Assembly: GCF_006345805.1 (NCBI RefSeq)
Contig: NC_043014.1
Location: 51,522,001 to 51,586,000, forward strand
Direction of reading: 5' to 3'
Length of the DNA stretch: 64,000 nt
From: Octopus sinensis
Taxonomy: Eukaryota
In this document: positions 17,716 to 44,260 of the stretch, one piece after another
Numbering within the stretch: position 1 is the first letter of the stretch
Layout of the letters: the number at the start of each line of letters is the position of its first letter
The notes under the pieces: model-generated
Told to the model about the DNA's origin: nothing
Seen by the model: the letters and a program-made list of their open reading frames with translations, nothing else
The model's database searches: none
Translations under genes and position numbers: made by a program

Positions 17716-17752
<37 letters not shown>

Positions 17753-18620: not shown

Positions 18621-18732
<112 letters not shown>

Positions 18733-18759
18733 CACCATGATAGTTCGGTAGCCACACAT

Positions 18760-18917: not shown

Positions 18918-18967
18918 ACACACACACCACACACACACACACACACACCACACACACACACACACAT

Positions 18968-19043
<76 letters not shown>

Positions 19044-19379
19044 CTAGATATGATATGTGTGTATATGTTTGTGCTGGCCAAGCATGGCCTTTCTTTCTTG
19101 GCTTGACTGCCGCTCGCACAACACCTCGATTTTCCTCTCCTCTGACTTTCATCTATGTTCGTTGCGCTAAGGCTTCCACTTCACACGTCAGCTTAATTTA
19201 ATTTGTCCTCTTAGTCGAAAGACACTTATTGTTATTTTTGTTTGTATTTGTAATCGTGTAACATTGTCTCCGTTTTCTTGTTTTTGTTTTGTCCGTGTTG
19301 TCGCAAACATTTAATGGCCTTACCTTTTAGGGACTACCAATTTTGAACAGTCTCAAGTGTAATAGGCCGAAACTGTAAT

Positions 19380-20050: not shown

Positions 20051-20475
20051 ATATTCTAAAGAAAGCTGACAAAATTTATTTGAGGTGATAGTGTATAAGA
20101 GATGGGTTAAGAGCAATATCGCTTGTTATATTTCAATTCTAGTTTCATGTTTGAGGGTTTTGTCCTTTATTTGCTACGTTACTTATAGAGGAGCCAGGAT
20201 AATATGCACTCCATCCATGTAGAATAAACAGAATCTCTATGCAAAAGCGTAGGGAGGTTTATACCGGGATAGAAACTTGTTACAGAGCGTGTCTTTCTGA
20301 TTCACTGAAATAATGGGTACATGTGTCTGGGGAAAATCTGACATTCAAACCGTTCCCCCCGGCGCAAGTAACGCATTCTCATTATCAACTGATATTTCAT
20401 GATCGATCATCGGAAATTCAACACACACAACAAACACACACACAGACACATTCATATATACATAAGCACATGCGT

Positions 20476-20476
20476 A

Positions 20477-20561
<85 letters not shown>
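20476..20561. repeat. (TATC)n tetranucleotide repeat
   Basis: Direct reading. Confidence 0.97.
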
Positions 20562-20562
<1 letters not shown>

Positions 20563-20612
20563 ACCATATATACACCGATTTAGATACACAACCTCCCATT
20601 TATAAAAAAAAA

Positions 20613-20710
20613 TATATATATGTATGTGTGTATGTGTATATATATATATATATGTGTGTGTGTGTCTATCTATATATATGTTTGTGTATATGTGTGTATA
20701 TGTATATATA

Positions 20711-20761
<51 letters not shown>

Positions 20762-20834
20762 ATATATATGTGTGTGTGTGTGTATATATATATATATGTG
20801 TGTGTGTGTGTATATATATATATGTGTGTGTGTG

Positions 20835-20877
<43 letters not shown>

Positions 20878-20894
20878 GTGTGTGTGTGTGTGTG

Positions 20895-20928
<34 letters not shown>

Positions 20929-20943
20929 ATATATATATATATA

Positions 20944-20986
<43 letters not shown>

Positions 20987-21119
20987 ATATATATATATGT
21001 GTGTGTGTGTATATATATATATATGTGTGTGTGTGTATATATATATGTGTGTGTGTGTATATATATATGTGTGTGTGTGTATATATATATGTGTGTGAGT
21101 GTATATATATATATATATA

Positions 21120-21196
<77 letters not shown>

Positions 21197-21223
21197 ATAT
21201 ATATATATATATGTGTGTGTATG

Positions 21224-21254
<31 letters not shown>

Positions 21255-21275
21255 CTATATATCTATATGTGTGTG

Positions 21276-21323
<48 letters not shown>

Positions 21324-21337
21324 ATATGTATATATAG
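20613..21337. repeat. Compound (TA)n(TG)n microsatellite
   Basis: Direct reading; explains the ORFs at 20620-21395. Confidence 0.97.
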
Positions 21338-22049
21338 GCTTCTCTCAGGTTATAAATATCTAAGAGTGAGCTTCAAAGTATATTTTGTCTCTTAAATAAT
21401 CTATAATGACACAGGCCAATATTCAGATATTCAACAACAAGCCGAGGCATCGATCGCACAGTTTCTTTTAGCAAATACAGTTTCATTCTTGTTTATTTTA
21501 TATTTACAATATTTTTTGTCTTTCATTTACTATGCTGTTTTTCTTTTTTTCTGCCTTGAAACCTTATCAAAACAATGGCTGAATTGTAAACAAAAATAAC
21601 GTCCATTTTCACGTCAAACCAAGCAAGAACGTCTTGGAAATCAATAATCGGTACCCTTCCTATATTTACGTACCTTTAGAGACTACTCTGAAGTCATCAA
21701 TATTTTTGTCTGATAGGAGACTGATTTAAATATTGTTCAAAATGTTTTAGCAAAAATCAACTAATACAAGTTGCAAAAAAAAATCAGCAACTATTTTAGA
21801 GTATTTTAAACATACACTATCACAGAACCGTAGGCAAACACGCACATATATCTAGACATCTCGGCGTTTGGAGTGTGCTGATGGGTAATCGTATATGTAT
21901 ACATATATATATATGTGTGTTATAATAATGATAATACACACATAAATTCATCCTATATATCTATATATGCATATATAAAAATATACATATACATATATAT
22001 ATATATATATATAGACCGCCATGATAGACCGTCAGCTCCTACACGCATT

Positions 22050-22226
22050 TTTTTCTCTCCTTGTTTCTCTCCTTGTTTTTTTTCTGTGTACCTTTCTGTC
22101 GAAGAGCGTAGGCTCGAAACGTAAAAGACTTTTTCTATTTCTATTCCTGAGCGCCATACTGATACATTTGTTTGTTTGTACTCCACCTGCCTTCGTCTTT
22201 TGTTCATTTTCGTAAACCTTCCCATT
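22050..22226 (+). mobile_element. Short repeat family D with minimal hammerhead-like fold
   Basis: CTTT-CTGTCGA-A-GAGC(GTAG)GCTC-GAAA-CGTA-AAAG at 22092-22127; ends at a (TA)n-rich tract. Confidence 0.8.
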
Positions 22227-22273
22227 ATATATACATACATATACATATATATATACATATATACATATACGCT

Positions 22274-22311
<38 letters not shown>

Positions 22312-22755
22312 CATATATAGGTCATATATAAATCATATTAATATTCATGTGTTTGGTCGATAGATTTGTGTTCTCCTGCCTTAGCCCGCAAGTGCTAGGT
22401 CGATCCAAAGACACGTGGATTCTCATTTTAATTCTAAAATCCTGTATCCTCGTCAATCAGTGGACAACGAGGAGTCGCATGGTTAAAACAATTGCTCAGG
22501 AATTATGATTTGATCTAATTCCGCTGGATCAGATGGAATCTAAGCTTGTCATGTTGCTTAGAGGACATCTTAGCCTTGGAATCACTACGCTTCTTCACCC
22601 ACACACACACACGCACATGCACAAACACACAAGCATGTATGGAACTGTTCTCCATTTTGAAGCGACAAATTTTTAATACAAGCAAATGGCTGTGAAATGG
22701 TGAGCTAGCACCAGGCAGAATCGAATCCACAAATCCTAGCGCAACCGATTGGGCC

Positions 22756-22805
<50 letters not shown>

Positions 22806-22986
22806 AATTATTGTATACAGTGCTCAGGTGCACCACAACTTGTCAAAACGTGCATATAAAGCATATGCAGTAATGTACAAATGTCTGGAAAGCGAACAGT
22901 GTACGAGTCAGATACATGCTTGCGTGTGTATGGAGGGGAGAAAATCAGGTGTAGTGTTGGCGAATCTCTGAAAGCATGGACGTTTC
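22756..22986 (-). mobile_element. 5'-truncated LINE 3' end with (ATT)n tail
   Basis: On the - strand: ORF end SMLSEIRQHYT*, a 3' UTR ending GTGGTGCACCTGAGCACTGTATACAATAATTTC, then (ATT)n. Confidence 0.65.
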
Positions 22987-23029
22987 AGCCAAATTTAGTT
23001 TATATATATTTAAACTGTTTAATACTATC

Positions 23030-23150
23030 AAGAGCGAAAAAAAGAGTGCTCGAATACGGAAGGTAGAGTAATACACTATTTTATAAAAGCTAGAAAAAAC
23101 CTTTTACAAAATAGCACTCGGCGTTTCACTTCACTGTTCATCAGGCAGTT
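23030..23150 (-). mobile_element. Penelope-like short repeat with CUGAUGA..GAAA core
   Basis: Shares CTCGAATAC..AGGTAGAGTAA with 7290-7313; - strand CTGATGA (23144-23138) and GAAA (23127-23124). Confidence 0.5.
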
Positions 23151-23240
23151 GTGATAATACGAAAGGATTCTTATGAAACGCCGAATAATAGTTTGAGAAG
23201 TATATTTTTCAGACGCGCGCGCACACACACACACACATAC

Positions 23241-23404
23241 GCACAGGAGTGGCTGTGTGGTAAGTAGCTTGTTTACCAACCACATGGTATCGGGATCAGT
23301 CCCACTGTGTGGCAACTTGGGCAAGTGTCTTCTACTATAGCCTCGGACCGACCAAAGCCTTGTGAGTGGATTTGGTAGACGGAAACTGAAAGAAGCCCGT
23401 CGTA

Positions 23405-23459
<55 letters not shown>

Positions 23460-23680
23460 ACGTTTGCGTGTCTGTGTTTGTCCCCCTAGCATTGCTTGAC
23501 AACCGATGCTGATGTGTTTATGTCCCCCGTTACTTAGCGGTTCGGCAAAAGAGACCGATAGAATAAGTACTGGGCTTACAAAATAATAAGTCCCGGGGTC
23601 GAGTTGCTCGATTAAAAGGCGGTGCTCTAGCATGGCCGCAGTCAAATGACTGAAACAAGTAAAAGAGAGTAAAAAGAGTA
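23241..23680 (+). mobile_element. SINE family A, full-length
   Basis: Colinear with 12011-12409; duplicated GTAAAA(A)GAG tail. Confidence 0.93.
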
Positions 23681-24062
23681 TATAATATATGTATACAGAG
23701 AGAGAGAGAGAGAGAGGTACAGTTCAATTTGAAATAATACCCTTGTTACATAAGATATGCAACTAGATATATCTTTATCAATCTTTATGCATACGATTAT
23801 GCCGAAAACTTAAAGTAGGTATATTCGTACTCTAGTGTCTACTTATTAGAGACACATTACCTCAATGTTTTTCCATCATTGCATAATTAGCAATAATTTG
23901 AATACTCTAAGAGTAAGTAAAATATATTGCATATTTAAGTGTGTAATAAATTTATGACTTTATGAAAATTTATTGTCCTAACGATACTGATCTCATATGT
24001 GTAGGTTATCAATACACAATATATTTTGGGTGATATCTACGCAAAAATTATTAGCGATTTTT

Positions 24063-24101
<39 letters not shown>

Positions 24102-24177
24102 TAATATATGCATCTTTATAGAGAAGTAAATACATATGTATATATGAATATGTAAATATGTTTGTGCGTATGTATAA

Positions 24178-24234
<57 letters not shown>

Positions 24235-24338
24235 TACGGAGAGAGAGAAAGAGAGACACATATGTATATACGTACTAGTACGTCTAGCTTTACCTAATCG
24301 TCAGCATATGCATATTCAGACATATGTAAATATATATA

Positions 24339-24716
24339 GGCGCAGGAGTGGCTGTGTGGTAAGTAGCTTGCTTACCAACCACATGGTTTGGGTTCTGTCC
24401 TACTGCGTGCCACCTTGGGCAAGTGTCTGCTACTATAGCCTCGAGTCGACAAAACCCTGTGATTGGATTTGGTACATGGAAACTGAAAGAAGAGTGTGTG
24501 TATATGTTTGTGTGTGTATATGTTTGTGTGTGTATCCTCCACAAACATCGCTTGCAAACCGATGCTGGTGTGTTTACGTCCCCGTAACTTAGCGGTTCGG
24601 CAAAAGTGACCGATAGCTTACAAATAATATGTCCAGGGGTCGATTTGCGAGACTAAATGCGGTGCTCCATCATGGCCGCAGTCAAAGTGACTGAAACAAG
24701 TAAAAGAATAAAAGAA
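24339..24716 (+). mobile_element. SINE family A, full-length diverged
   Basis: GGCGCAGGAGTGGCTGTGTGG head through ACAAGTAAAAGAATAAAAGAA tail. Confidence 0.92.
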
Positions 24717-24749
24717 TGTATTATGTATATATGTGTCAATATATACGTT

Positions 24750-24813
<64 letters not shown>

Positions 24814-25220
24814 ACTCTTTTAATCTTTTACTTGTTTCAGTCATTTGACTGCGGCCATGCTGGAGTACCACGTTTAGTCGAGCAAATCGACCACGGGACT
24901 TATTCTTTGTAAGCCCAGTACTTATTCTATTGGTCTCTTTTTGCCGAACCGCTAAGTGACAGGGACGTAAACACACCAGCATCGGTTGTCAAGCGATGGT
25001 GGGGGGGACAAACACAGACACACAAATATATACATATACATACATATATATATATAAATATATATACATATATACGACAGGCTTCTTTCAGTTTCCGTCT
25101 ACCAAATCCACTCACAAGGCTTCGGTCGGCCCGAGGCTAAAGCAGAAGACACTTGCCCAACGTGCCACGCAGTGGGACTGAACCCGGAACCATATGGTTG
25201 TTAAACAAGCTACTTACCAC

Positions 25221-25223
<3 letters not shown>
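24814..25223 (-). mobile_element. SINE family A, inverted relative to its neighbour
   Basis: Reverse complement of family A from the tail to ACTTACCACA. Confidence 0.92.
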
Positions 25224-25286
<63 letters not shown>

Positions 25287-25916
25287 ATATATGTATCTGT
25301 ATGTAAGTATCTGTCTGTCTATAGCTATTATATGTACATACATAAGCATATGTACGTACGTCTGCATATATATATATATATATATACGGGGAGGGGGCAG
25401 AGTGAAAATCCGGTCGATCTTATCGTTGTCTTCCATCAATCAAATACCAATATAATAATGACCCGCTAATTACTTCAGTCGATTCCACAGATTGCTAATC
25501 TCCCCTCTCCTCCACACACCCACACACATTTACACCAAATTAACAGCTTTGTTTTGTTCTTAATAATCAATACACTTCCCAATATTCTGTCGAGTTTCAC
25601 TTAAGTTTCAAGAACACATTTTTCGCTTCATATCGCAACTAATGGACAAGAACATTATTGGTTGAATTTTTTTAATAGGCCAACCGGTGTTTTGCTGCGT
25701 TTTTGCCATGAAAGAAAAACTTGGAAGCGTATTCGTCTTGGCACGAGATCAAATAGTGCTCGTAGCATTGTGCGGAAATGCACTTGTTTTGGCGTTCTTG
25801 TTTTCTTAAGTCTTTGAGGATTCTTCTCTGATAAACATTGCCCGGCCGCACCAAAACACGAAACCAGACACTTACACTCATATAGACTCCCAAAATCACA
25901 TACTTACAAGTGTGTG

Positions 25917-25946
<30 letters not shown>

Positions 25947-25947
<1 letters not shown>

Positions 25948-26334
25948 GAGCAAAACGCCATCCGTCCAATGGACGGTGCTGCGTTGTCAAACATTTAAAG
26001 CAAATGTTCTCAAAACTACTTTCTGACCTTCCGATAGGCCTTCGCTTTGAGAAACACTGATTTAACCTCAATTTGAGACACCAGCAAAAGAAGAAATAAC
26101 GATAGACTTTTTTCTATTCCAAGAAAAACAATGTTACAAATGCACGTTCCCACGGCTTTATCGATAGCATTCTCACGTGGAATCTATTTTTGTAATTCTT
26201 TCAAAACTTATACACGCTTTAATACCGTCGGTATCTACATATCAAATTTGAGTGCAATCGGGTGGAGGATGCTCGAGATCCTAGAAGACACACATACAGA
26301 ACTGATTGCATATAATGGATATATAAAACTTAGA
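25947..26334 (-). mobile_element. Degenerate Helitron-like element
   Basis: Hairpin CCGTCC-AAT-GGACGG (25962-25976) 11 nt from a degenerate terminus (+ strand ACGAG for ACTAG); AAATTTGAGTGCAATCGG motif of the type seen in the other Helitrons. Right boundary uncertain. Confidence 0.45.
26001..26059. mobile_element. Tiny hAT/Charlie-type MITE
   Basis: Ends CAAATGTTCTCAAA / TTTGAGAAACACTG; flanking 8-mers ATTTAAAG / ATTTAACC. Confidence 0.45.
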
Positions 26335-27689
26335 TATGTTTCGACCAATGATTGGTCCAGGCCATAAGTACCTCCCGTCGATTCGATATGACGGTTGTCC
26401 GGTTAATGAAACGCCATGGCGTTTACACATTGAAAGGAATAATTGTGTTCATCATGAAGCTGTATCAGCGTATGTTATGTTCAAAACATTTTACACTTAC
26501 ACTTCTTAACAATCACTCACTTTACTACTCTCACTGCATCTCTATCTTTCTGCTTCTCTATATTCACTTTGCGTATGTTTAGTTATCTGTTTCCTCCCTA
26601 ACTTATTTACTTAAATAATATATCGTTGTTAAAAGGGTTAACTCTCATGATAACAAGACACAGCTATTAAATATCCTTTCATATCTCCCCGTTTATTCAA
26701 TCCATCGCTCAAGTTTATCGATCCGCTATATTTATCTGCACATGCATGACATTGATATTTATCGTGCATCCATTTGAAATATTTGTAGGAAACCCATGTA
26801 ATTGTTTAATGAATATCCTGTTCAACTCAATAAACGGAGTCACCAACATAGCGTGAAAGAAGGATTTCTAAACATGCTCCTACGCCTATAAATTCCATTA
26901 AAAAAAAACCCAAACACTTAAACGACAAAACCATTTTTCTGCATACAAATTTTATGAATTTATTAGGTTTATAAATTCTATAAAATCTGCGATGCAATAT
27001 GCATATTCTTAGTTCCGCTTTAAAAATATTATTAGTATATGAGGTAATAATGCTATACATGCATCTCTCCTGCTTTTCGCCAGTTTTTGCTAAACCGGAC
27101 ACGCTCCAGTTTTAGGGGTATATCGAAAAGGATATTAAAGTGAAAAGCGGCAGTAAATTATTAAGATATACTTTTAAAATATTTATGAATTTCTTATGAA
27201 ATATTCATGCTTTTATTCCCTAGTGATATGGTGAGGGAATTCCCAAACAATATCTCAAGCATTCTGAGACTTCGTAGATCAATAATTTTATGTTCTGCAT
27301 CCATATCTAAAATTCATTCAATGTTGGTAAGAATCCGTAACTTCCATTGAAATGTCAGTTCAGTAGCAATGCTGCAAGAAGGCTCAAAATTCTATGTCGG
27401 AATGGCTTGAGTAAATGTGCTTTGCTTTCAAATAGTTCACAATAAAGGAGTGAGAGTCTACGGTGGCGAAAACTGTGACAGTTAAACATAACATTTACAT
27501 CCTTTCCGCTTAGGTTGGCCGGAATTTGTAGAGGGTTCTTCAGTGGGTCACGGCGTGGTGAGTGGGACGATATTGCATTGGATTTTCACATTGCTGATTT
27601 TGAGAATGTCTGCAAGGACTGTCAGATATTGTAGCAGAATGCGTGTGCTGTCCTATCATAATTTTTGGATGTATAAAGAATTTTGCTTG

Positions 27690-28205
27690 TCAGTCACACC
27701 GTCCCGGGCTCGGTGCCCTTTCGTGGCACCTTGGGTAGTGTCTTCTAGTTTGGTCTCTAGCCTACCAAAGACTTGTGAAGAGATTTCGTAGACGGAGTAC
27801 CCTGTCGTGTGTGTTAGTGTATGCTGTGTGTGTATATATATATTTTTGTGTATGCGCCTGTGTGGTGGTGGAGAGTGTACCTGTGTTTGTATCCCACTAC
27901 TACTTGACAACTGTTGTTGGTATGTTTAAAGCTGCGAGCTGGCAGAAACGTTAGCACGTCGGGCGAAATGCGTAGCCGTATTTCGTCTGTCATTACGTTG
28001 TGAGTTCAAATTCCGCCGAGGTCAACTTTGCCTTTCATCCTTTCGGGGTCGATAAATTAAGTACCAGTTACGCACTGGGGTCGATGTAATCGACTTAATG
28101 CCTATGTCTGTCCTGGTTTGTCGCCTCTATGTTTAGCCCCTTGTGGGTAATAAAGAAATAGGTATGTTTACGTCCGTGTAAGTTACCAATTCTGTAAAAG
28201 AACCT
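27690..28205 (+). mobile_element. Degenerate SINE family A interrupted by a family B insertion
   Basis: CGTGGCACCTTGGG..TCTTCT and CTTGACAAC..GGTATGTTTA before the insert; continues CGTCC..GTAA after it. Confidence 0.75.
27929..28160 (+). mobile_element. SINE family B (~230 bp) with 10-bp TSD
   Basis: Head GCGAGCTGGCAGAAACGTTAGC, B-box-like GAGTTCAAATTCC, central GCCTTTCATCCTTTCGGGGTCGATAAA; TSD GGTATGTTTA at 27919-27928 and 28161-28170. Confidence 0.92.
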
Positions 28206-28821
28206 AATGAATCAATTTCCACTGCCCCTACATGTCCGCACCCAAATTTAGTGAAAAAGTAAAATATAATGTGTATATATGTGCCTGTTACTGTTATAGT
28301 TTTAATGTCCATATCTCCATACTTCCAGAGCTGGATGGAGTTTACTAAAGTGGATTTTCAGTGGCCACATACACGTCCTCCTCGTCCCCAGCCCTCATTT
28401 GATACCAGCCACGGTACTTTTGTTTCCGATGACCAACAGACATCTTTCTTCAGAATATTGAAAATGGAAAAAATACTGCATATATGACCGTAACAAGCTT
28501 TTGGTTTTCAGATGTATCAAGCAAAATGAGGACAAGAATATGTAACAAGCAAAGAAATGCATTGCGCCTGCTTTACTTTTCCTTTTCTAAATGCTCATTA
28601 AACGCTCTGGTCAGTCCGGGACGGCAGCAAAAGTCCCCAGCGCAAGGTTTCATGCAGTGGGGGTAGAACCTTAAACAATGTGATTAAGAAACAATTCTCT
28701 CAGTCACGCGGCACCTACAGACAAACACGCGCACACATACCACAAGCCTGTCCTCCATGTATATATATATATATTTATATTTAGACACTCACACGCATAT
28801 ATATGTATGTATATATACATG

Positions 28822-28977
28822 TTTTTCTCTCCTTGTTTCTTTCTGTGTCCCTTTCTGTGACAGAGCGTAGGCTCGAAACATAAAAGAATTTTTCTATTCC
28901 TTAGCGTTATACTAATACATCTGTTTGTTTTGTACACCACCTGTCTACGTCTTATGTTTTTTTTTTTCGTAAAATCT

Positions 28978-28980
<3 letters not shown>
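28822..28980 (+). mobile_element. Short repeat family D
   Basis: Colinear with 22050-22226; abuts (TA)n. Confidence 0.82.
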
Positions 28981-29031
<51 letters not shown>

Positions 29032-29135
29032 GTTTAAATAATGAGGGAGATAAATTTAGTATTAATTTAATTAATATCAATTTAAAACCAGTAGCCTAGC
29101 ATACAAAGATCTGAAAAATCAGAGAAAATTCTAAT

Positions 29136-29251
29136 ACATGTGTATATTTAAAGGGGAAGACCACTAGGTAGTCGGACGTATGCTAGAAACAGATCTATTT
29201 CTAGCATACGGCCGACTACCTAGTGGTCTTGCCCTTTGAATATACACATGT
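29136..29251. repeat. 116-bp near-perfect palindrome
   Basis: 58-bp arms centred on AGATCT (29191-29196); 3 mismatches plus 1 G-T pair. Confidence 0.95.
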
Positions 29252-29277
29252 GTATATATATATATATGTGTGTGTGT

Positions 29278-29355
29278 GATGATTAAACATATATACATAT
29301 GTGTGTCTGTGTGTGATGATTAAACATATATATATATGTGTGTGTTTGATGATTA

Positions 29356-29401
<46 letters not shown>

Positions 29402-29477
29402 ATGATTAAACATATATATATGTGTGTGTGTGTGATGATTAAACATATATATATATATGTGTGTGTGTGATGATTAA

Positions 29478-29517
<40 letters not shown>

Positions 29518-29760
29518 GTGTGTGTGTGTGATGATTAAACATATGTATATATATATATATGTGTGTGTGTGTGATGATTAAACATATGTATATATATATA
29601 TATATATGTGTGTGTGTGATGATTAAACATATGTATATATATATATATGTGTGTGTGTGTGATGATTAAACATATGTATATATATATATATATGTATGTG
29701 TGTGTGATGATTAAACATATGTATATATATATATGTATGTGTGTGTGATGATTAAACATA

Positions 29761-29811
<51 letters not shown>

Positions 29812-29822
29812 CTGATGATTAA

Positions 29823-29871
<49 letters not shown>

Positions 29872-29883
29872 ATGATTAAACAT
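29278..29883. repeat. Minisatellite: 14 x GATGATTAAACAT separated by variable (TA)n(TG)n
   Basis: 14 copies of the 13-mer counted directly. Confidence 0.93.
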
Positions 29884-30789
29884 ATAAAGTATATATATAT
29901 TATTGGGCAATGGTGTCGAGCATTAACTACAATTTAGAAGAGAAAAAAAGCAGCAACAAATCGTGAAAGACAATTCCATCGCAAATTGCTCCCAATTAAT
30001 TTAATTATGAATTACATAGTACCACATTTGTAAAGACATCCAGAAAATATTGATATTAGTTACATTAAACATTGTTATGCCATTAATTGTAGAGCATTTG
30101 TTAACACCATTGTAGTTAGCTCATCGATGTACGAAGTCTAAAAGAGGATCTGACGCAGCCATTTTGTTCCTGACTCACTGGCATCGCTAATTCGACGCTG
30201 ACATGTTTGACATGAAACTTTATGTATCCGTGAAAATTTAGTACCGTGAAAATATTTATCATAGTCTCTAACTTTATTTTTCCCATTCTTTCCCTCTCTA
30301 TCTTTTTCTTCTTTCTCTCTCGTTCTCTCTCTCCCTCGTTCTCTCTCTCTCTCTCTCTCTCTGTGAACCTATTTCTTTTCGTGCCTTCGAAGAGAGCGAC
30401 CGCGTTGATGTCAATCGGCATAACAAATGAATTGTAATTTCTCTTTCCGTTTCTAACTTTCATTCTTTCTCTTTCTTTCTCTCTCCTTCTACGCATCTAT
30501 CTCTATTTCTCATGCAAGCATGCACGTGTGTGTTTACTTCAACTGCCAAAAATTCCTTCGCCAAAATAGTTTCAATGCCGAACATTTAACCGTGCCAAAA
30601 CGCCTGCATCCAAGTAACTGCGTTGAATTCTCTCGCTCCTATCCAAGAACATGTACCTAATTTATTTGCTACGTAAATTCTTGATATATTTATCAAACCA
30701 CTCTTACTGAACATGTCAAAGGAACTTTTAAAATATTGAAACAATGTCAATTTTTATCATTCCCTGTTTATATGGAAGTATTTTATGAA

Positions 30790-30864
30790 TTTTTTTCTTT
30801 TTCTTTTTTTTTTTCAGGTAAGTCCAATTGTTTTACTCAGGTGTTACTGCAAGCCTCTGTGAGT
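30790..30864 (+). other. Candidate recursive splice site (AG|GTAAGT) with downstream RS-exon donor
   Basis: Pyrimidine tract 30790-30815, AG 30816-30817, GTAAGT 30818-30823, second donor GTGAGT 30859-30864. Confidence 0.65.
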
Positions 30865-31008
30865 CTGTTTACATTTCTTTTTTAATTTCTATTTACTTTT
30901 TGTTTTTTATCAGTTGCTTTCACTGTTTCTTAAATTTATTGCAGCATGTTACCACATTTGTGAATTGAAATCAAATATTTTATTTAATACGCTATACATA
31001 CATACATT

Positions 31009-31053
<45 letters not shown>

Positions 31054-32011
31054 GCAGAATTTTTTTCCTGAGAGTTGCCAAAAACTTCCTGTCTGCCTCC
31101 ATTTATTCCCGTATTGAATGTTTTGGTTAATGGTCATCTCAGGTTATCTTTATTATATTTCAATTAGTTTGGTAGTATCGTTTTCTTTTAGGGTCCAAGT
31201 TTTTAATCCAAATTCACAAAAACACACCTGGTGCAGGTGTATGTATATGTTAGTTGACATTTCGATGCATGATCATTTTTAAAAATGTTATGAATACATA
31301 TTGTAGAGTTTCTAAGAATATGCCAAGTTTAAGTTCCAATCTAAACTATTCCAGAACTTCTATTGACAATTTTTCTACAGCACAAAGTGGTAACACGAAA
31401 CCAAATTAAAAACCTCAGCACTATCCATTTATTTGTCTATCTACATTTATGTATATGTGCACATACACGCATATACACACCTATATATTCTTCCCATGTG
31501 TGCACAAACATTACTGCATTCATATATGCACCTGTGTGTCTGTGACAGAAAGTATGTATTCCAGATACATTTACAAAAAAATATTTCTTAACTTTATTTT
31601 CTTTTAATTTCAAGAAATTTCAAAATTTGTACAATGGAAGACTTTCCATAACTTGGAATTGATTGAGACGAAATCAGCAATAGAAATTAGAAACTAAATC
31701 GATATTTAATAAATAAAGAAGAAATATCTGAAATTCGAATTCAGATCAATAAAGATGAATATCTAAAATTTCATAATTTTTGTTAGATTTTCCTGGTTTC
31801 TTTTTGCTGTTATTTTGAACCAACTTTTAGTTTATAAAATATTTCTAGTGTTATTGATTTGAAATTTAACACTGGAAATATTGGAAAACAAAAGAAAATG
31901 GATTCGAAAACAACATTTTGTTTACCGGTATACACATATACATAGAGAGATGGTAATAAATACCGATACACACACATAAATACAGATAAACATTGGTGTG
32001 AAGTGTGTATG

Positions 32012-32080
<69 letters not shown>

Positions 32081-32410
32081 GTGTGCGTGGGTAGGAGATT
32101 TATATGATGTCGTAAGAATTTAGAAATTGAGAGAACATGAAAGAAATCCTTTTTAGAACGGTGAATCGGGAAGCAGATGAAGCTATAAAAATTTACGTGT
32201 AAAGATACTTTGTTGCTCACATTTATATGATCTAGTATCTCCAGATTGGAGAACCAATCAAAACTTATATTTCAATAGAAAATATGATTAATAAAATATG
32301 GATATTTTTCATTAATTAAATTCATCCTTGCTCAACATTTCATTAGTGAAATATTTTAAAGTCTGAAATGTTTCCTTTGATGTAATCAGAAGTCCTTGAA
32401 ATACAGAACT

Positions 32411-32457
<47 letters not shown>

Positions 32458-35400
32458 CAAATTGTCACTTATAGTGCTGACATGAACCTGAAAGTTATTG
32501 CAATGTAGGAAATGGTCACTCATGCCTAATTGTAGTGTTAATTAGTAGATTTCAGTTTCCGTAAATTTATCTGTTTTAGCCATCGTTAATTAAATCCGTT
32601 GGTGTAGTTTGAAAATTCACCATTGCAAATAGGTCTCAACATGCATCACATTGTCAGTAATATACTGCGAAATCCTTTTATTAAAAGCTTTCAACAAATG
32701 TTAAAATTTAGTTAATTCTCTTTTTGTTCTTAATACCGAATTATTACAACATAAGCATCAACGTCAAATGTGTTTTTCTAATGCTTTCATTTTACTTTTG
32801 TTTCATTTTTCTTATGCTTTCATTTTGCTTTGGTGGAGACACGCTGGTTTGTGGAATTGAACATGCTAACTTGTTAATTAAAGTTTTCTTAAAGTTATTC
32901 CTCTTCTCCTTTACGTTTACAAGTTTTCTTCAACCCCACAGTTTGAATCGGTTGGCCATAGTGATCACTGCCACATTTATAAATTAAATATGTATCTCAT
33001 AGTGTGTAAGCTATAGATATCACAATGAAGAAATTTTCTCTGCTGATTCAAATGACGCTGTTCTCTACACTCATTAACAGGGAACCTACTGTGTGTAATT
33101 GCGGCAGAGAAGAGCAGAACAAATATTAGACACCTTAATTTGTCAAGTAAATATGTTTAGCGTAAGGGACAACTTGAATCTGTCAACCTGTGATTAATGA
33201 CTTTCCACCTTTTCTATCTTCTCTGTCGGTTCTCATTTCTATATTAATGAATCTAGAACACCGTTATCGAGTTTTCTTTTCCATAGTGTTCAATTAAAAG
33301 AGTATGTAGCTGCTAATCTTAGCAGGTCAAGAAATCACTTATCTTTCATTAAATGTTAACTAAAGACGCATTTTATCGGAAGTAACGTTTCTTATGCTGG
33401 TAACCGAACAACTCAAAGATTCCATTTAAGCGTAGATGATTCTAAAATAATCGCTAGTATATATACACTTGAATTGACAACAGCAAAAAAAAAAAATGTC
33501 TATGAAATATAACACAATCACTATAATCTAAGAACTAAACATATTATTTTGATTTTTTTTTTAACAAAGAAGCTACATTGTCAACTTTAGATTTGCTGAA
33601 GGCTATCTTACGCTACATTGTTCAAAACACATTTGGAATTATTTAAGTTTTCTCGATTTAGTTACAAACCAGCTATTATAGAGTTAAATGTTTATTTCTC
33701 TTACCCAATGCGATTCTCGGTCGAGCTTTGAACTATGATCGAAAATATTTCTCTTAAGATCATCCTATCACTTTAAGAGTATCTTTCAATACATCATCGG
33801 ACGTATTCTCTCATTTTTGTTTCCTGCACAAGTTTTGAAGCTATTTTCTTGTTATTTCTAGCAGGCCATGTGTCCTACATATTGTTTATAATAACAGATC
33901 CAACTGTTGTTGTTGTTGTTCCTGTCGATCTTGTTATTATCCTCTTAATCATCTTAATTTTTATGATATTTTCGAAGGCTTCTTACATTTAATGTATTGC
34001 TTTAGGGAACGTTGTGTTTCTGCTGTTGTTGTTGTTACTATTACAAATTCGCTATTGCCTTTGTTGATCGTTTAATTTTCTTTGGCATTTCACCTTAACA
34101 GATATGCTTTTGAGAAGATTCCACCATTGTAGCCACCAAAACTACATACAATCTTATAGAGATCGCTACGCTTTCAACATCAAAGAACAGCACAAACTCT
34201 TAGACCTTATTTGCTCATAACAACACAAATATTTCCGTAAAGAAAGTAATATACATGAACTACGCAATCGCGATCACGCACAAGCAATATAATACCAATA
34301 AAATTGCAATATAATAACATACTTTCTTCCATGCATGCATAGCATTATATTTAAAAACATGAGAATATAAACGACAAACATAAAATTATTAACTACATTA
34401 AAGGCAGCAAGCTGCAAACATCTGTATACGCCTACACGTATATATAAATATCTGCCAACATATAAATACACTCATGCATTTGTGTATATTTATATATATA
34501 TATATATATATATATAATTATGTATATGTTAATATATTTATATATGTGTTATGAATTTATAATGATAAGTTTTAGAAGTGGAAATTTCCTCTGGGGATTG
34601 TAATTATTGTAAACTGTAAATATTGTTTCGTATTATAAAATTGAGCAATTTTCGGGATAATGATAGTTGTTTCAGGCGGCAGTATAACGAAGAGGTAACA
34701 TTCCAGTTATCTGGTTGAGTATCAAAGTAACATAGTAATTTTGTGGTTGAAAGGAACGACATTTTAGCGATATACTTCCTGTAAATAAAATAAAATAAAA
34801 TAAAATAAAATTATAACAGTAAAACAATCGCAAGTATCACAGTTAACGTAAAACAGAAGAATTACTAATTTAATCTTCTTTAAAACATGAGAGTTTTAAC
34901 CAAAATCTAGGACTGTTCTTTATACTGAGCGATACACTATTATTATAGAATTATTATTCTGCTCCTCACATTTATTTAATGATAATATCTTTATGCTAGA
35001 AGAACAAAAATAATGTTAGTCATTCTATAAAGTTTATGAAATTTAAAATTACAAATTCTCTCATAGCGGAGCGGAAGGAGACGATACAAAAAACAAAAAG
35101 AAAAAACGAAACGAAACAGAATAAATATTATCAAATATAAGATTATGAAAATTTGAATATTTTAAGAGAAATCAAACACACAAACTCAAATTAAAAAGGA
35201 AAATAAATACTTATAAGTAACGCAAAAATTGAAGAATAATTTACATAAAGAAGAAAATATGGCTTTCGCTCAGGAAGGACGAAACAAACAGTGACAAAGC
35301 TAATAGAACTAGCCATAACAGCAAAGAGATTAAATATTAATATTTGTATATTTATCTAGTTAGCTCGTTACTAAAATAGTTTCTTGTTATATCTCTTGTT

Positions 35401-35656
35401 TATTTCTGTTGTGTCACGCTCCAGTGCATCTAATGTCGTTTACGGCGTTAAAATTCACGTCTCGTTCATTTAAAGAAGAAAAAAATTATGAGACTGAGAA
35501 AAACAAAAATAAAATGAAATAAAATGAATATAAAATTCATATTTGAAAAATTACCATACAAGAAACAATTCCTATCAATATTTCAGTTTGGTTTTATATT
35601 AAATTGATAACAATGTTCAAAATATAATCTGAAACAAAATAATAATAATAGAGGTA

Positions 35657-35862
35657 ATATGTATATACATATACATACATGCGAATGTATGTGCATATGC
35701 ATGTATGTTTATATATTATATATATATAGCTATATAAATATACACACACTATATATATATATATATACCTTTACATATATACAGATATTATATATATATG
35801 TTTATATATATGTATATATATATATACATAATATATCTTTACATATATACAGATATTATATA

Positions 35863-35958
<96 letters not shown>

Positions 35959-35964
35959 ATATAC

Positions 35965-35999
<35 letters not shown>

Positions 36000-36161
36000 A
36001 TATACCTATACATATATATAGATATAATATATATATATAATATATACATTTATATATATATATATATAAATATACATACATACATGTATAATAATATATA
36101 TAAACATACACACACATGTATGTATGTATATATTTATATATACACACACATACACACACAT
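35657..36161. repeat. TA-rich microsatellite
   Basis: Direct reading. Confidence 0.95.
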
Positions 36162-37575
36162 TTAAGGACAAGTATTGTTTAAAGAAATTTCAATTTCATC
36201 TAATTCAGAAACAATTGTGGTAACAACAACTACATTAATAATATTATGAGCAGCAATGACATCTTCACCCAATGATAAAGAACTGGAAATTTAAATGAAT
36301 GACTAAATAAGATAAATACAGGGAAAAAGAAATAATTATTATAAAAACAAAAAATAAATACACTAAAAATATCAAAATCAACAAAACAACAACTACAACA
36401 ACATCAAGAATACTGATACTCCTCCTCCTCCTACTACTAATATTAACAGAATTAATCCAAACTTTAATATGCCTTCATTAATTTTAAGTGAGGTTAGAAA
36501 AACATGAATATTATTGGTAACTTGAGATTGGATATTTAATTGCAATTCTAGAAAATACTCATCACGCATCATTGTGAAGGCAATGAGCTGGTAGCATTAC
36601 TAGTGCGTCGGACAAAATGGTTTCGACATCTAACGGTCAAATGCCACATATGATACAACCTTTAGTTAAATTCCGTATCTCTACGACGTAAATAAGCGTG
36701 AATATTTCACTTATATGCATACGTTAAATGAGAGGCGATATAAAAAAAAAATTAGTTCAATTAAAAGTAATACATTTTTCACTATGCACTCACCTCCTCC
36801 ACTACTGACACCTCCAACACCCCCATCTCCACCACCATCATCTCTCTTTTTCCTCTCTCTCTCTTCTCTCCTACTCCTGTCTCTCTCCGCCCTTCTTTTA
36901 GCTCACCATCAGAACATCATTCTTCTGCTAAAATTATATCTGTAACTCTCCTCTCTATCATCACTACGTTCAACTAACTTCTTTAACCGCGAAATAAATA
37001 TTCTGTTCCCCTTACCACACACAACAGATGCTTCTCTAACCCTCTTTTTCACTCTCCCTTTTTATATCCCCCCGTCTTTTTCTTTCTCTTTCTGTCTCAG
37101 TCTTCACCTTATCCATTTTCTCTCTCTTTTTTCTTTCTCCTCTCTTTCCCTTCAACTAATAACGTGAAAGTTTTACAATTATATTCTCACTATTTCACGT
37201 TTCTCCATTTCCCTATCCTTCTTTTTCATGTTCCTCCCTTGCTATCTCTCTCTTTACTCTCCCTGTCTTGTCGTTAATCAGATGAAAGCGTTACTGACGG
37301 GCTAAGTAACGTAATAACAAGCAGAATTATTATAAGATTGCAATTACTGTTGATGCATTTAAATGGTAGTGTCATTGGAACTTCAGACAAAAGGTTTCGT
37401 GTTATTTCTTCCGTTAGCTCAAATGTTGTAGCCGTCGAGTTTGAGTTTCATACTTCCGGGGTCAATAACAAATGTACTAGACAAGTACCGGCGTCAATCT
37501 AGGCCCCTTCTCTCCAAACAACTTGTTGCTTTGGCCCCTTCTCTCCAAAGTATTAGACATTCTTAATAGTATTAT

Positions 37576-38160
37576 CTATTTCTTTACTACCCACAAGAGG
37601 CTAAACACAGGGGGAACAAACAAGGACAGACAAACGGATTAAGTCGATTACGTCGACTCCAGTGCGTAACTGGTGCTCATTTAATCGGCCCCGAAAGGAT
37701 GAAAAGCAAAGTCGACCTCGGCAGAATTTGAACTCAGAACGTAACTTCAGACGAAATACCTATTTCTTTACTACTCACAAAGGGCTAAACACAGAAGGGA
37801 CAAACAAGGACAGACAAACGGATCATGTCGATTATATCGACCCCAGTGCGTAACTGGTACTTATTTAATCGACCCAGAAAAGATGAAAGGCAAAGTCGAC
37901 CTCGGCGGAATTTGAACTCAGAACGAAACGGCAGACGAAATACCTATTTCTTTACTACCCTCAAGGGGCTAAACATAGAGGGGACAAACAAGTTGAGAAA
38001 AACGGATTAAGTCGATTATATCGACCCCAGTGCGTAACTGGTACTTATTTAATCGACCCCGAAAGGATGAAAGGCAAAGTCGACCTCGGCGGAATTCGAA
38101 CTCAGAACGCAACGGCAGACGAAATACGGCTACGCATTTCGCCCGGCGTGCTAACTTTTC
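37576..38160 (-). mobile_element. Head-to-tail trimer of SINE family B
   Basis: Units 37576-37759 and 37760-37943 (184 bp each) and 37944-38160 (includes most of the head). Confidence 0.92.
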
Positions 38161-38879
38161 TATCTTTATTTTAACACAGTTTGTGATGTTATGTAGAATT
38201 GACGCAACAGAAATCTAGGTGAGACGATAGAATGAAAATAACTGATTAGACAAATATTTTTTCGTAAAATAGCAAATTATGTGACAGCTAAATGTCTACC
38301 AAGTTAATTAATGTGCAGTAGATGTAAACAGAACTTTTTTTTTTTTTTGCAGAAAAATTAAGAACGATAGAACTATAAACATTTACCATCTGTAATGGTC
38401 GAACAATAAATTTAAAATGTACAGATCGTCATCAAAAAAGCGAAAGAGGAAGAGAGACTAGAAATAATTACCTGCGTTAGACATTAGTAAATAATGTCTT
38501 CCTACGTATTTCTCTGCAACGTGATTTTAATACACACACACAAACACACACATGCACACACAGGCACATATATATATATTGGTTGCAAGTTTTCTCTACT
38601 TTTTCATATTTATCCAATAGTGTACAATTAGCTCTTCTAATTTCAGCTTATGAAATTTCATTGTTATTTTTTGCCAAAGCCGCTCCTGTTGAAAAAAGAG
38701 GACGGCTGGCGAAATGAGTCATCCCCTACTACCGACAGAGATGTCGGGATTTGATCATTTATTACACGACATCCTGACATCAAAAATCCTAATTCACTTT
38801 AGTATGAAATGGCTATGGTATGTAACAAGTACAGATCCGCCCTGATTTCCACACCATTGATTGTAGTGGTCTCAGCAGG

Positions 38880-39045
38880 TACATAGGGAAAGAGGGCATA
38901 CGAAGAAGAAATAATTGAGAGCAGTGAAAGAAAATTTTCCGTGTGTGATAACAAGAGCAGATTGGAGCTTGGGGCCTGGCAGTTGAGGGCGATGATAGAA
39001 AGATCAAAGGGGGGGGGAAGATTTATATAGATGACATGAGAACAG
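38880..39045 (+). mobile_element. Possible highly decayed RTE-type LINE 3' fragment
   Basis: Frameshifted resemblance to the RTE C-terminus pattern (HV.R..LE....EG.IE..RGRG...IDD). Confidence 0.3.
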
Positions 39046-39313
39046 GTACCGAGAATGCTGAAATGGATTCATATTAGAGTCTGCTAAAATGAATCAATAG
39101 GTCCACATATAACATCCCAAGGTACATCTTTTTCCTTTCTCTGACGAAATTATGCTCATGTCATATAAATGCAAATTTAATGGACAAATTTGTAATTAAG
39201 TTATTCAGTATTAACTGAAACGGCTGTAAGGAGCTTAGATGACCGTTTTGTTAATAATAAACAATTCTTAACTTCCTTATCGCCAATTTCTTTTCTAATT
39301 ATATGAATGTATG

Positions 39314-39513
39314 TATCGGTAAATGTAATATGTGACAATTATTCGGTGGCCATGATAGAACTCCGAGTTTCGGATGCCGAGGTGGAAAACCACGCCGCCA
39401 CCTCTTCAGTTATTCGGCCATTAGAAGATGCTATAAAAAATAACCGTTATACCTCGAAACTCGGAGTTTTATCTTGGCTACCGAATAGTTGTCACATATT
39501 ACATTTACAGATA
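39314..39513. mobile_element. Fold-back element with 59-bp inverted arms
   Basis: Arms 39314-39372 and 39455-39513, 5 mismatches, 82-bp spacer. Confidence 0.85.
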
Positions 39514-39622
39514 AATCTCTCTATTTACATAATATCGAGGTCTCTTTCTTTCTTTTGTCGTCTTACCATTTTTATCAGTATATATATATATATATAAATA
39601 CACACACACACACACACACACA

Positions 39623-39699
<77 letters not shown>

Positions 39700-40779
39700 T
39701 TAACTGTCCGAAAATTCGAAGTCTCAGTCAAAAATTTGTTTATTTGGTAGTAATGAATTTGTACTCTACAAAAGTATAGTACAAAATTAAACGTGTGTAT
39801 GCGAATATATATATATATATATACACATATATGTATACACTTTTGTACATAAATATATACGTATATATACATATATGTGTGTGTGTGTGTGTGTATGTGT
39901 GTGAGTGGGTGTGAGAGTTAGAATTTTCTCCTTATTGAACCGATGCTTGATCACGCACATCTGAAGGCCTTTCTTTTTTTTTCTTTTACCAAAGCTCTCT
40001 ATAGAAATGATTAAGAAGCAAACGGACACATACCTTCAAACGTATTAAGTATTCTTCAATTAGCGTAATCTAAGGAAAATATTTTCTTAGGCTGCTCCTT
40101 CTGAAATGCCGAACATGCAGGGCACTTGTTAAGAAGCACTGTTGTAAAGAGATCTTTATCGCTCACTGTAAATGAAAAGCTCTAATGATGTTATTAGAAG
40201 AGATTATGATAGTCGTATCGTTCAAAATTTCCTTCTCACTCTCATTAACTGACTCTCCACTGGAATGTATCTACAAGAATTTGTAGCTGAGTGGAAGGAA
40301 ATGATTGGCTGTTTAACTCCGGGGGACCTCTAACTATATGCTTATGTACAGAGATTATGTCGCTCTGACCATTTTACTGCAAAGGGCCAGATTATATGAA
40401 GTGGGTTTTTGGAGAAAAAAATTGTGTATGGTTATGGAGAAATATTGTGGCAAGTTTTAATAGGGACGCCGACTGTGCTCAGTCTCATTAAATACTAAAA
40501 AATGATAAAAAGAAACGAATCTATATGATATATTTCGCTATTTTTTGCTTTTATGATTAGAAGTAGGTAATCGCTGCTGTCCATAAAATATGTATTTATA
40601 CATAATATTCAGAAGTTGTGGATTCAGTTCAAATTATCGAACGTTTCGGAACCTATCATCATTGACCACTGTAAGAGAGAGCCTATCATGTCCTACCACA
40701 GTTCTCTATTCTTTGTTTTCTGCAACCGTCTCAATTCCTGATGTTTAATGCTTCTTCCTTCCAAACAATTCATCAGGCT

Positions 40780-40922
40780 TCACATTTACATCATCCCTCT
40801 AATTTCTTTCCTTCTTTACCCTGCATTCTTTCAGGGCATGGCTAAATTCTTCAGGTTCTTCTTCCTCATCACATGATTGAGAAAACTAATTTGCTTGGCT
40901 GTGATTACAACTGCAATTACTT
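40780..40922 (-). mobile_element. RTE-clade LINE ORF C-terminal remnant
   Basis: VITAKQISFLNHVMRKKNLKNLAM then frameshifted MQGKEGK, resembling the RTE pattern RQL.FLGHVMR..LE.L...GKIEGKR. Confidence 0.55.
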
Positions 40923-41194
40923 CACATAGCAGTTAGTTGTTCACATTTTACGACTGTATATTGTAGAAATCTCTATCTTTGAACTTTGCAATTACTTCGA
41001 TATCAGAGCAAATGTTTCGGAATTTATAATTTTCAATTAAGATTCATGGAATGCTATAAATTATTGATGCGATAGGCATACACACACACACGGGGGGGGG
41101 GATATGTACACACACACACACACACAAATATATATATATATATATATTTATGTAGACACGCACATAAACTCGTATGCACAGAAACACTCACACA

Positions 41195-41350
41195 CGAGTG
41201 TGTGGTAAGAAGTTAGTATCTCAACTACATCTTTATCAGGGTTCAGTCCCACTCTGTAGCAGCTTGGGCAAGTGTGTTCTCCTATACCCTTGGGCCGACC
41301 AAAGCCTTGTGAGTGAATTTGCTAGACAGAAACTGAAAGAAGCACGTCGT
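41195..41350 (+). mobile_element. SINE family A, 5' half
   Basis: GGGTTCAGTCCCACT, TTGGGCAAGTGT, GCCGACCAAAGCCTTGTGAGTG, AACTGAAAGAAGC. Confidence 0.82.
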
Positions 41351-42747
41351 GTGTATATATATATATAAATAAAATTTTTATCGTTAGATCAGAATCCCAG
41401 TGTGCTATTTGTAAAATTGTATTTCGATAAAACGCCTTTGATTAACTGTGTGTTGAAGCTGCATCCGACCTTAGGTATTTAGGTCCACATGACCAATTGC
41501 ATATTAGGGAAAGATGGGCCCTCTCATAACTACTCACTATTTATATCTGGAAGGAATGTGATTTGAAAATGCAAAATATGTCCCCTAATTGTATTCCAAT
41601 TCTTAAAATCTATCGACCTCGACTGTTGCTTTATTCATAGACCCAGGCACATAATTAAGTCGGACATAATTCATGAGAGACAATATCCAATTCAGAGAGC
41701 CCAGAAACGTGAAAATAGCACAATCTCACTTCCTCTCAAACGGTTTAGCAACTTTGTGAATTAGCTTTCTATGATTCTGTCTTCTGACATGTTTAATAGC
41801 TTCTTAGATTGTCACATACGAGTGCTATATGTGATATGAATATTTAACGAATGAATTGTCTCTTGAGCCGACATCCAGAGCTTGAATTATGTTTGAGTAT
41901 CAATTTTGTGATTAATGAACGTCCAAATTATCGCTTATTGAACTTGAGATCATCGCCTAAACAAACAAAATAAATTTCTGGCATGTATTGAATGCGGCCG
42001 TGTAGAGTTTAGGACATTTCTGTCTTTACGTCAATATCAATAAGATTTCAAAATTGACGGAAAGTTTAACCGTTTACAAGCGAAACACGATCGTCAAAAT
42101 TGTTCTTACACCTTGTAAATTATTTATGACTTATAAACAATGAGACATCAGGTAACAACCGGCGCCTTCGTGGAATGTCATAATAAGATGTAGAAAAGCC
42201 GTAACACATTACCACAAAGTGTTTATGGTTTTGTTCCGACTATTCTTGGTTGGTAATTGTTGTCTATTACTTCAATTAAATTACAGTGTCTGGCTTTTAG
42301 CAATCTTTTGGCTTTTAATGTTCTCCTCTGAGTTGAATGTGTTCTAATCATGGTTACGAGGACAAAATTGTAATATATCCCTCGCCTCATGTCAGAAACC
42401 CGTTGAAAACTATACGGTAGTCATACACACACACAAATGACTTTGTGTGCTTTTTGTTTTTACAAATCACAATCTGTCGAGTTCTGCTTTGGTCGCTCGC
42501 AAGGAAGCCACGGATAAAGGAAGACTACCCAATGTCTCAATCTATCCAGTATGGCCGAAACCCTTATGAACCATTTCCTGACGAAATGAACTGCTTCTCC
42601 ACACTTCCATGCTTCTATAATTACAGCAATCCCTCGACTATCGCGGATGTTACGTTCCCCCCCCCTCATCTCCAGCGATAGGTAAAAATCCACAAAGTAG
42701 AAACAGTAATGTACTGTATATCTTTTTCAAATTATTTTAATAATTTA

Positions 42748-43915: not shown

Positions 43916-43950
<35 letters not shown>

Positions 43951-43993
43951 ATCTATATCTATCTATATCTCTCTATCTATTTATCTATCGATC

Positions 43994-44257: not shown

Positions 44258-44260
44258 ATA

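Follow-up and report, generated by a model that had tools for sequence, protein, structure and literature searches.

The window, that is, the whole 64,000-nucleotide stretch of Octopus sinensis DNA analyzed here, appears to lie within the giant 5' intron region of a gene for an adhesion protein with Ig and FN3 domains, as judged from exon mapping and from the series of splice sites described below. It is rich in microsatellites, in a genome of 2.72 Gb, and neither exon scans nor mapping of the proteins of relatives found a coding exon at the focal site (around position 30817) or anywhere else in the 64 kb. A 184-nt unit, an interspersed element common in the region, occurs three times in tandem at 37576-38127 (90% alike), and at 31154-31164 two contig sets carry a 14-nt insertion relative to the assembly, likely an allele or species difference. 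The coordinates of all features are collected in Table 1, and a slash marks splice junctions throughout.

Exon scans placed the Ig exons of the host gene on the + strand about 617 kb past the focal site. The nearest identified coding exon lies 608 kb downstream, in the sense orientation relative to the site, and the first Ig exon, which has a phase 1 acceptor, begins about 575 kb beyond the end of the window. Pfam matches in the gene models P0008 (from O. vulgaris) and P0005 gave three Ig domains (one of V type, then two of I/C2 type), and an FN3 domain (a weak match, E 0.002); a hydrophobic C-terminal exon was judged by eye to be a putative GPI-like tail. Three Ig domains followed by a GPI-type tail is the arrangement of the IgLON / DIP / Lachesin family. 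Relatives of the protein are labelled limbic system-associated membrane protein (O. bimaculoides, Argonauta), NCAM1-like (O. sinensis, O. vulgaris) or MuSK-like; an LSAMP-like label for the octopus gene comes from two sources, and a protein labelled Octopus sinensis is 100% identical to a downstream host-gene exon. Over their full length, the three Ig domains align with chains of NEGR1, neurotrimin, OPCML, IgLON5 and DIP, and the best solved-structure match is MDGA1. Since an FN3 domain has been added and MDGA1 outscores the IgLONs, orthology to Lsamp stays putative. A protein search with the Ig1b exon returned no match among 28 candidates. The second Ig1 exon has a tandem acceptor (CAG AAG) with both AGs in frame, of which P0008 takes the distal one.

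The 3' end of the intron is fixed at the first Ig exon, and its 5' exon is a candidate. Signal-peptide exon scans yielded one plausible phase-1 candidate and several poor ones. The plausible one lies 351 kb upstream of the focal site: a stretch rich in CT and CpG holds two segments flanked by splice signals, the second of which has an open, hydrophobic frame of 60 residues and ends in phase 1 at -320343. No database protein mapped to this candidate, and the signal peptide of P0005 found no match in the mapping; the 3' part of the candidate resembles simple-repeat DNA, a 100-N assembly gap lies 1.5 kb downstream, and the T-over-A skew climbs nearby, noisily and as a hint only. With this candidate the span would measure 959 kb, two assembly gaps included, and form a predicted intron of up to ~0.96 Mb that may instead be divided into several. 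The public octopod models of the host gene (P0001, P0002, P0003, P0004, P0006 and P0008) all have either no convincing signal peptide or a doubtful start exon, that of P0006 being a D/N/H repeat, while the more distant P0005 begins with what resembles a signal peptide. Annotation of the octopod models probably fails because of the giant 5' intron.

The focal site opens with 26 consecutive pyrimidines (30790-30815), the last of which is the C of a CAG. The AG itself (30816-30817) is preceded by an AG-free run of 37 nt and directly followed by the donor GTAAGT, and a second donor, GTGAGT, closes a 41-nt segment. An earlier note on this DNA had described this tract, both donors and the 41-nt segment, and all of its coordinates were recovered in the sequence. 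YAG/GTRAGT juxtaposes strong 3' and 5' splice sites, as a ratchet point does, and the short cryptic exon with its downstream donor is likewise a ratchet-point feature. With a hand-set matrix, the focal acceptor scored 13.8, compared with 3.0-9.3 for the acceptors of eight host-gene coding exons. It ranked first among the 2,866 YAG acceptors of the 64-kb window and first among 4,707 AG/GT sites in 1.064 Mb, and no other position in the window, on either strand, matches Y10-N-YAGGTRAG exactly, which bears out the claim that no other juxtaposition of this strength occurs in the 64 kb. Allowing up to two mismatches gave three matches in the window, one of them with no mismatch, and 12 of 100 shuffles also reached three, so that the 64-kb window by itself cannot tell the focal site from chance.

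The 41-nt segment also contains a second, weak CAG/GT (AG at 30839-30840; acceptor score -0.9 versus 13.8), which is absent from the earlier note. This inner AG, served by the strong upstream tract, could define an in-frame neural microexon of 18 nt that is open in phase 1 and closed by GTGAGT, and a neuronal microexon programme is reported for non-vertebrate bilaterians (PMC8797185). However, the inner acceptor lies 23 nt behind a far stronger AG, and the microexon would leave unexplained both the GTAAGT at 30818 and six similar sites elsewhere in the region (see below); we regard it as very unlikely. Retained as a whole in a phase-1 intron, the 41-nt segment would shift the reading frame and bring in a stop four residues into the first Ig exon, an in-silico reading that presumes no further coding exon in between and takes phase 1 from the acceptor of the first Ig exon (Ig1a).

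AG/GT sites on both strands of about 1.2 Mb around the window were then ranked by an acceptor plus donor matrix set by hand from consensus sequences. The top seven of the 4,707 sites in 1.064 Mb all lie on the + strand, with scores of 11.5-19.1 and the next site at 7.9, and the focal site is the best of them. When the region was extended to 1.264 Mb and AG/GC was added, the same seven led 9,721 sites, the next scoring 9.1. These seven sites (rungs 1 to 7) carry GTAAGT in five cases and GTGAGT in two, and all of them are 5' of the first Ig exon, every exon of the mature protein lying downstream of rung 7. Within the 959-kb span, GTRAGT stands behind 7 of 267 strong + strand acceptors, where 0.13 are expected, and behind none of 220 on the - strand, a sense-strand excess over chance of the kind expected of ratchet points. 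Outside the span, it stands behind 0/82 and 0/83 strong acceptors; this comparison is in part post hoc, since the sites were already known when the 5' limit of the span was set, which leaves the strand contrast unaffected.

The rungs are 91.0, 90.5, 204.9, 108.8, 100.7 and 115.4 kb apart and cover 711 kb end to end. Under random placement between the outer rungs, a smallest gap this large has a P of 8e-4 and a coefficient of variation this small a P of 0.012. With the candidate first exon taken as the start and the first Ig exon as the end, the segments measure 170, 91, 91, 205, 109, 101, 115 and 78 kb; two of them, 205 kb and the first 170 kb, are about twice the usual size and have no strong site inside. 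A weak site at window-frame position 135770, which would halve the 205-kb gap, scored 5.5, within background, and was not counted. The second assembly gap in the span falls in the interval from rung 6 to rung 7. All seven rungs have acceptor-type tracts and runs of 25-183 nt free of AG. A perfect second donor (GTRAGT) occurs 20-80 nt downstream of four of the seven (at +45, +41, +28 and +76), compared with 2.8% of random positions (P 2e-5), and of three of six when the focal site is set aside (P 4e-4); the other three rungs have no consensus donor in this interval. A repeat origin of the rungs was rejected, since they have only the motif in common and their flanks are not copies of one repeat.

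Table 1. Features at the host locus and at other sites in the genome. Window-frame numbering continues beyond both ends of the window; rung positions are those of the G of AG.
Feature	Window frame	Assembly	Strand	Basis
Whole window, inferred intronic	1..64000	C18:51522001-51586000	+	ladder and exon mapping
Candidate first exons, two splice-flanked segments in CT- and CpG-rich stretch	-320896 to -320343		+	adjoins assembly gap
Rung 1	-150696	C18:51371304	+	top-seven AG/GT score
Rung 2	-59690	C18:51462310	+	top-seven AG/GT score
Rung 3 (focal site)	30817	C18:51552817	+	best AG/GT score
Polypyrimidine tract and CAG, predicted recursive 3' splice site	30790..30817	C18:51552817	+	sequence, acceptor score
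GTAAGT, predicted ratchet-point 5' splice site	30818..30823		+	sequence, donor score
Predicted 41-nt cryptic RS-exon	30818..30858		+	lies between two donors
Possible 18-nt in-frame microexon (unlikely)	30841..30858		+	open in phase 1; acceptor score -0.9
GTGAGT, predicted RS-exon donor for exon definition	30859..30864		+	sequence
Rung 4	235678	C18:51757678	+	top-seven AG/GT score
Rung 5	344508	C18:51866508	+	top-seven AG/GT score
Rung 6	445214	C18:51967214	+	top-seven AG/GT score
Rung 7	560647	C18:52082647	+	top-seven AG/GT score
Host exon, first Ig	638805-638876	C18:52160805-52160876	+	protein mapping
Host exon	647480-647674		+	protein mapping
Host exon	650469-650590		+	protein mapping
Host exon	658891-659038		+	protein mapping
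Host exon	668641-668928		+	protein mapping
Host exon	680899-681020		+	protein mapping
Host exon	715187-715246		+	protein mapping
Host exon	from 731167		+	protein mapping
Second ladder, at least six AG/GTAAGT sites		C13:49512251-50474719	-	motif score
Ephrin-domain exon		C13:49448971-49449159	-	domain match
Ephrin-domain exon		C13:49421325-49421513	-	domain match
Candidate ladder, same-strand strong pair <300 kb		C3:3895400/4014129	+	genome scan
Candidate ladder, same-strand strong pair <300 kb		C8:57541085/57678793	-	genome scan
Candidate ladder, same-strand strong pair <300 kb		C8:24376244/24506579	-	genome scan
Candidate ladder, same-strand strong pair <300 kb		C21:5088070/5138698	+	genome scan
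Candidate ladder, same-strand strong pair <300 kb		C24:26464683/26493435	+	genome scan
Candidate ladder, same-strand strong pair <300 kb		C2:204276731/204326331	+	genome scan
Candidate ladder, same-strand strong pair <300 kb		C1:188476962/188753456	-	genome scan

Scanning the whole genome, where a scan of long introns had been proposed, returned 85 copies of Y16NYAG/GTAAGT, compared with 26 for a reversed-pattern control and 4 for the permuted /GATAGT, that is, an enrichment of 3-fold by the reversed and 21-fold by the permuted control. Y16NYAG/GTGAGT occurred 19 times (reversed pattern, 8), and the looser Y12NYAG/GTRAGT 197 times, compared with 17 for /GTATGA. After 14 of the 104 Y16 sites had been set aside for lying on small contigs, the other 90 included six same-strand neighbours closer than 300 kb and no opposite-strand ones, with about one expected; one of these pairs is the C18 locus. 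Among the Y12 matches listed (the first 100 of 197), five neighbours closer than 300 kb were on the same strand and none on opposite strands (2.3 expected), and within 1 Mb there were 10 same-strand pairs and 1 opposite-strand pair, the total of 11 being near the 7.4 expected.

The region C13:49.9-50.5 Mb was picked for two - strand sites, and a - strand ladder was predicted before its sequence was read. The top five of its 3,126 AG/GT sites were all on the - strand, with scores of 11.1-16.2 and the next at 7.2, and three of them were new. They are separated by 93.8, 152.0, 157.7 and 109.3 kb, and four have a GTAAG donor 72-95 nt downstream. Among strong acceptors, 4 of 244 on the - strand carried the motif, two of these four having served to choose the locus, versus 0 of 181 on the opposite strand. 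The ladder was read in two blocks 380 kb apart and includes a sixth site at 49512251 with no second donor within 150 nt; exons encoding ephrin domains follow 63 kb downstream of this site, likewise on the - strand. Pooling the C18 and C13 sites, 8 of 12 have a second donor (or 8 of 13 when the sixth C13 site, excluded from the first count, is added) against a background of 11%, under a looser donor rule set after the data had been seen. A chance poly-T run beside a donor-like hexamer in AT-rich, repeat-rich DNA would agree with the loose count in the single window, which was not significant, and with the abundance of poly-T runs on both strands. It is largely refuted by the strand-specific ladder, its spacing, the genome-wide enrichment and the second locus, and we give it next to no credence.

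The gene model P0008 offers a hint that rungs act as acceptors. Twenty-five of its residues are identical to the 76-nt segment behind rung 6 (window-frame positions 445215-445290): its exon begins at the GT of rung 6, closes at the downstream donor and is spliced in the model to the first Ig exon, 193 kb further on. A search of 1.264 Mb did not recover the eight residues that precede this exon in P0008. No gene model covers the 5' part of the gene at rung 3, and the rung 6 exon is present in one O. vulgaris model, P0008. After an upstream exon whose last codon encodes Phe, the donor recreated at rung 6 scored 0.1, compared with 3.3 for the downstream donor, so that retention of the exon in P0008 fits donor competition; behind the candidate first exon, the same recreated donor scored 8.0 with the hand-set matrix. 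Inclusion of this exon also accords with the view that each rung marks a small exon of an ordinary or alternative kind (in the 5' UTR, a poison exon or a regulated cassette), which starts with GTRAGT by chance and is taken up or skipped in a single step, with no re-splicing. Mammals express many RS-like exons, according to the accessible text of PMC8605326, and the 45-nt segment of rung 1 is open and in frame in phase 1. In contrast, the 41-, 28- and 76-nt segments run into early stops in phase 1 (three of the four closed segments; that of rung 6 is open in phase 0), the three rungs without a downstream donor have nothing to close an exon, all seven start with a perfect donor hexamer where 0.13 would be expected, and cassette exons are not expected at even spacing. 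We therefore hold small exons to be an improbable account of the rungs, if the least improbable of the alternatives.

Tandem alternative first exons occur in adhesion genes, and the focal CAG/GTAAGT, which is the best donor consensus, might be only the 5' splice site that closes an untranslated, T-rich exon, such as one among a set of alternative first exons that are each joined to the first Ig exon. CT-rich sequence does lie 300-500 nt 5' of the site, but a crude proxy detected no promoter-like CT/CpG island there. Such an exon end would not predict the enrichment of a close second donor, nor does it agree with the acceptor-type tracts and AG-free runs at all seven rungs or with the treatment of rung 6 as an acceptor in P0008. 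Genome-wide, Y16NY-HC/GTAAGT occurred 25 times for three dinucleotides, compared with 85 for AG, a weak control because donors favour AG anyway. We consider this explanation decidedly unlikely.

Four contig sets, whose RNA status is a guess, were aligned to positions 29890-32040 and showed no joints and no loose end at 30818 or 30858. The pyrimidine tract was skipped as a repeat and the junction is not readable, so that this alignment speaks neither for nor against splicing into 30818. Two contigs of one set enter the tract from either side and would overlap by 30 nt, which would fit unspliced sequence, as expected of pre-mRNA or DNA. Contig cover was mostly downstream of the focal site, and contig depth cannot reveal a saw-tooth.

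Taken together, the DNA evidence strongly supports recursive splicing, and we predict with considerable confidence that the focal site is a ratchet point, the third of seven. Recursive splicing of a giant + strand intron is what the earlier note had proposed, and the co-oriented seven-rung ladder 5' of the Ig exons supports it. Of the two findings that it had said would overturn this proposal, a - strand host does not agree with the Ig exons mapped on the + strand; the other, a T-rich UTR exon simply ending at 30817, is disfavoured by the ladder and by the P0008 exon that starts at rung 6, the junction at the focal site itself being a prediction. By analogy with work in fly and mouse (in the accessible text of PMC8605326, PMC6110457, 10.1101/006163, PMC8797253 and PMC5126111), passage of the polymerase through 30817-30864 would allow the 41-nt segment to be recognized as a small exon, from the strong acceptor to GTGAGT. 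Joining of the upstream exon to 30818 would then recreate exon/GTAAGT from the GTAAGT at 30818-30823, and this donor would outcompete the weak TCT/GTGAGT and be spliced to the next rung, leaving nothing of the focal site in the mRNA. With the hand-set matrix, the predicted scores were 8.5 for the focal GTAAGT behind the candidate first exon and 0.6 for the GTGAGT donor. The giant intron would in this way be removed one segment of ~100 kb at a time. A poor donor context at the end of the upstream exon would instead cause the cryptic exon to be kept, which at rung 3 would make it a frameshifting poison exon.

The ratchet points of Drosophila (Ubx, kuz, Bx, luna) likewise consist of polypyrimidine-YAG/GTRAGT in long introns, several per intron, with out-of-frame cryptic exons of ~50 nt and a downstream donor, compared with 28, 41, 45 and 76 nt in the octopus (in the accessible text of 10.1101/006163, PMC8605326 and PMC6110457). 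The recursive introns of the fly are given there as 11-133 kb long and contain 1-6 sites, their segments ranging from 2.6 to 63.6 kb and averaging 18 kb (10.1101/006163) or 9.1 kb (PMC6110457). The octopus step, with seven sites over 711 kb and gaps of 90-205 kb, is five- to ten-fold larger than in the Drosophila series, and the Drosophila sites are documented by RNA, whereas those of the octopus are known from DNA alone. Mammalian RS sites such as those of mouse Lsamp and Cadm2 share with the octopus the AGGTAAGT motif, a strong tract, a giant 5' intron and an Ig-superfamily adhesion host (PMC8797253 and 10.1101/2025.08.14.666599, accessible text). Mouse has about 20 RS sites in all, 75% of them in first introns; four are in Lsamp, three of them checked by RT-PCR, and the three Lsamp sites listed are 394 and 324 kb apart, versus gaps of 90-205 kb here (PMC8797253, accessible text). 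Unlike Lsamp, the octopus protein has an added FN3 domain. As a guide to effect size, deleting a single CADM2 RS site in human neurons reduced expression by roughly a fifth (10.1101/2025.08.14.666599, accessible text). Large invertebrate introns show the same sense-over-antisense excess of RP motifs, and the ~0.7 site per 100 kb in the octopus falls within their range of 0.48-2.2 per 100 kb, obtained with different scoring; the RP-site table in the accessible text covers sea urchin, fly, mosquito, bee and beetle, and no mollusc (PMC2773006).

We found no description of recursive splicing in cephalopods in the literature covered (mostly outside subscription journals, supplements excluded), in line with what the earlier note had said, and the ladder is likely a known mechanism in a new lineage. 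Beyond this locus, we lean, if only slightly, toward the view that the octopus removes megabase introns of neural wiring genes (IgLON-like, ephrin and probably dozens more) via fly-style ladders with a step of ~100-150 kb, which would be a first in a mollusc. The ladders supply exact positions for seven sites in one gene and for six in a second, and they point to the missing 5' ends of genes whose models are truncated or have a doubtful start (P0001, P0002, P0004, P0006 and P0008). If the reading is right, rung exons could serve as a promoter-dependent switch, and one type of adhesion gene would be subject to recursive splicing in both octopus and mouse, either through deep conservation or through convergence during the growth of neural genes. 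RNA data document the process in flies and in mammals, with widely differing numbers and spacing of sites; a mollusc whose genome measures 2.7 Gb and whose nervous system is large would add a third lineage in which to consider its ancestry, the relation of step length to genome size and the bias toward neural genes.
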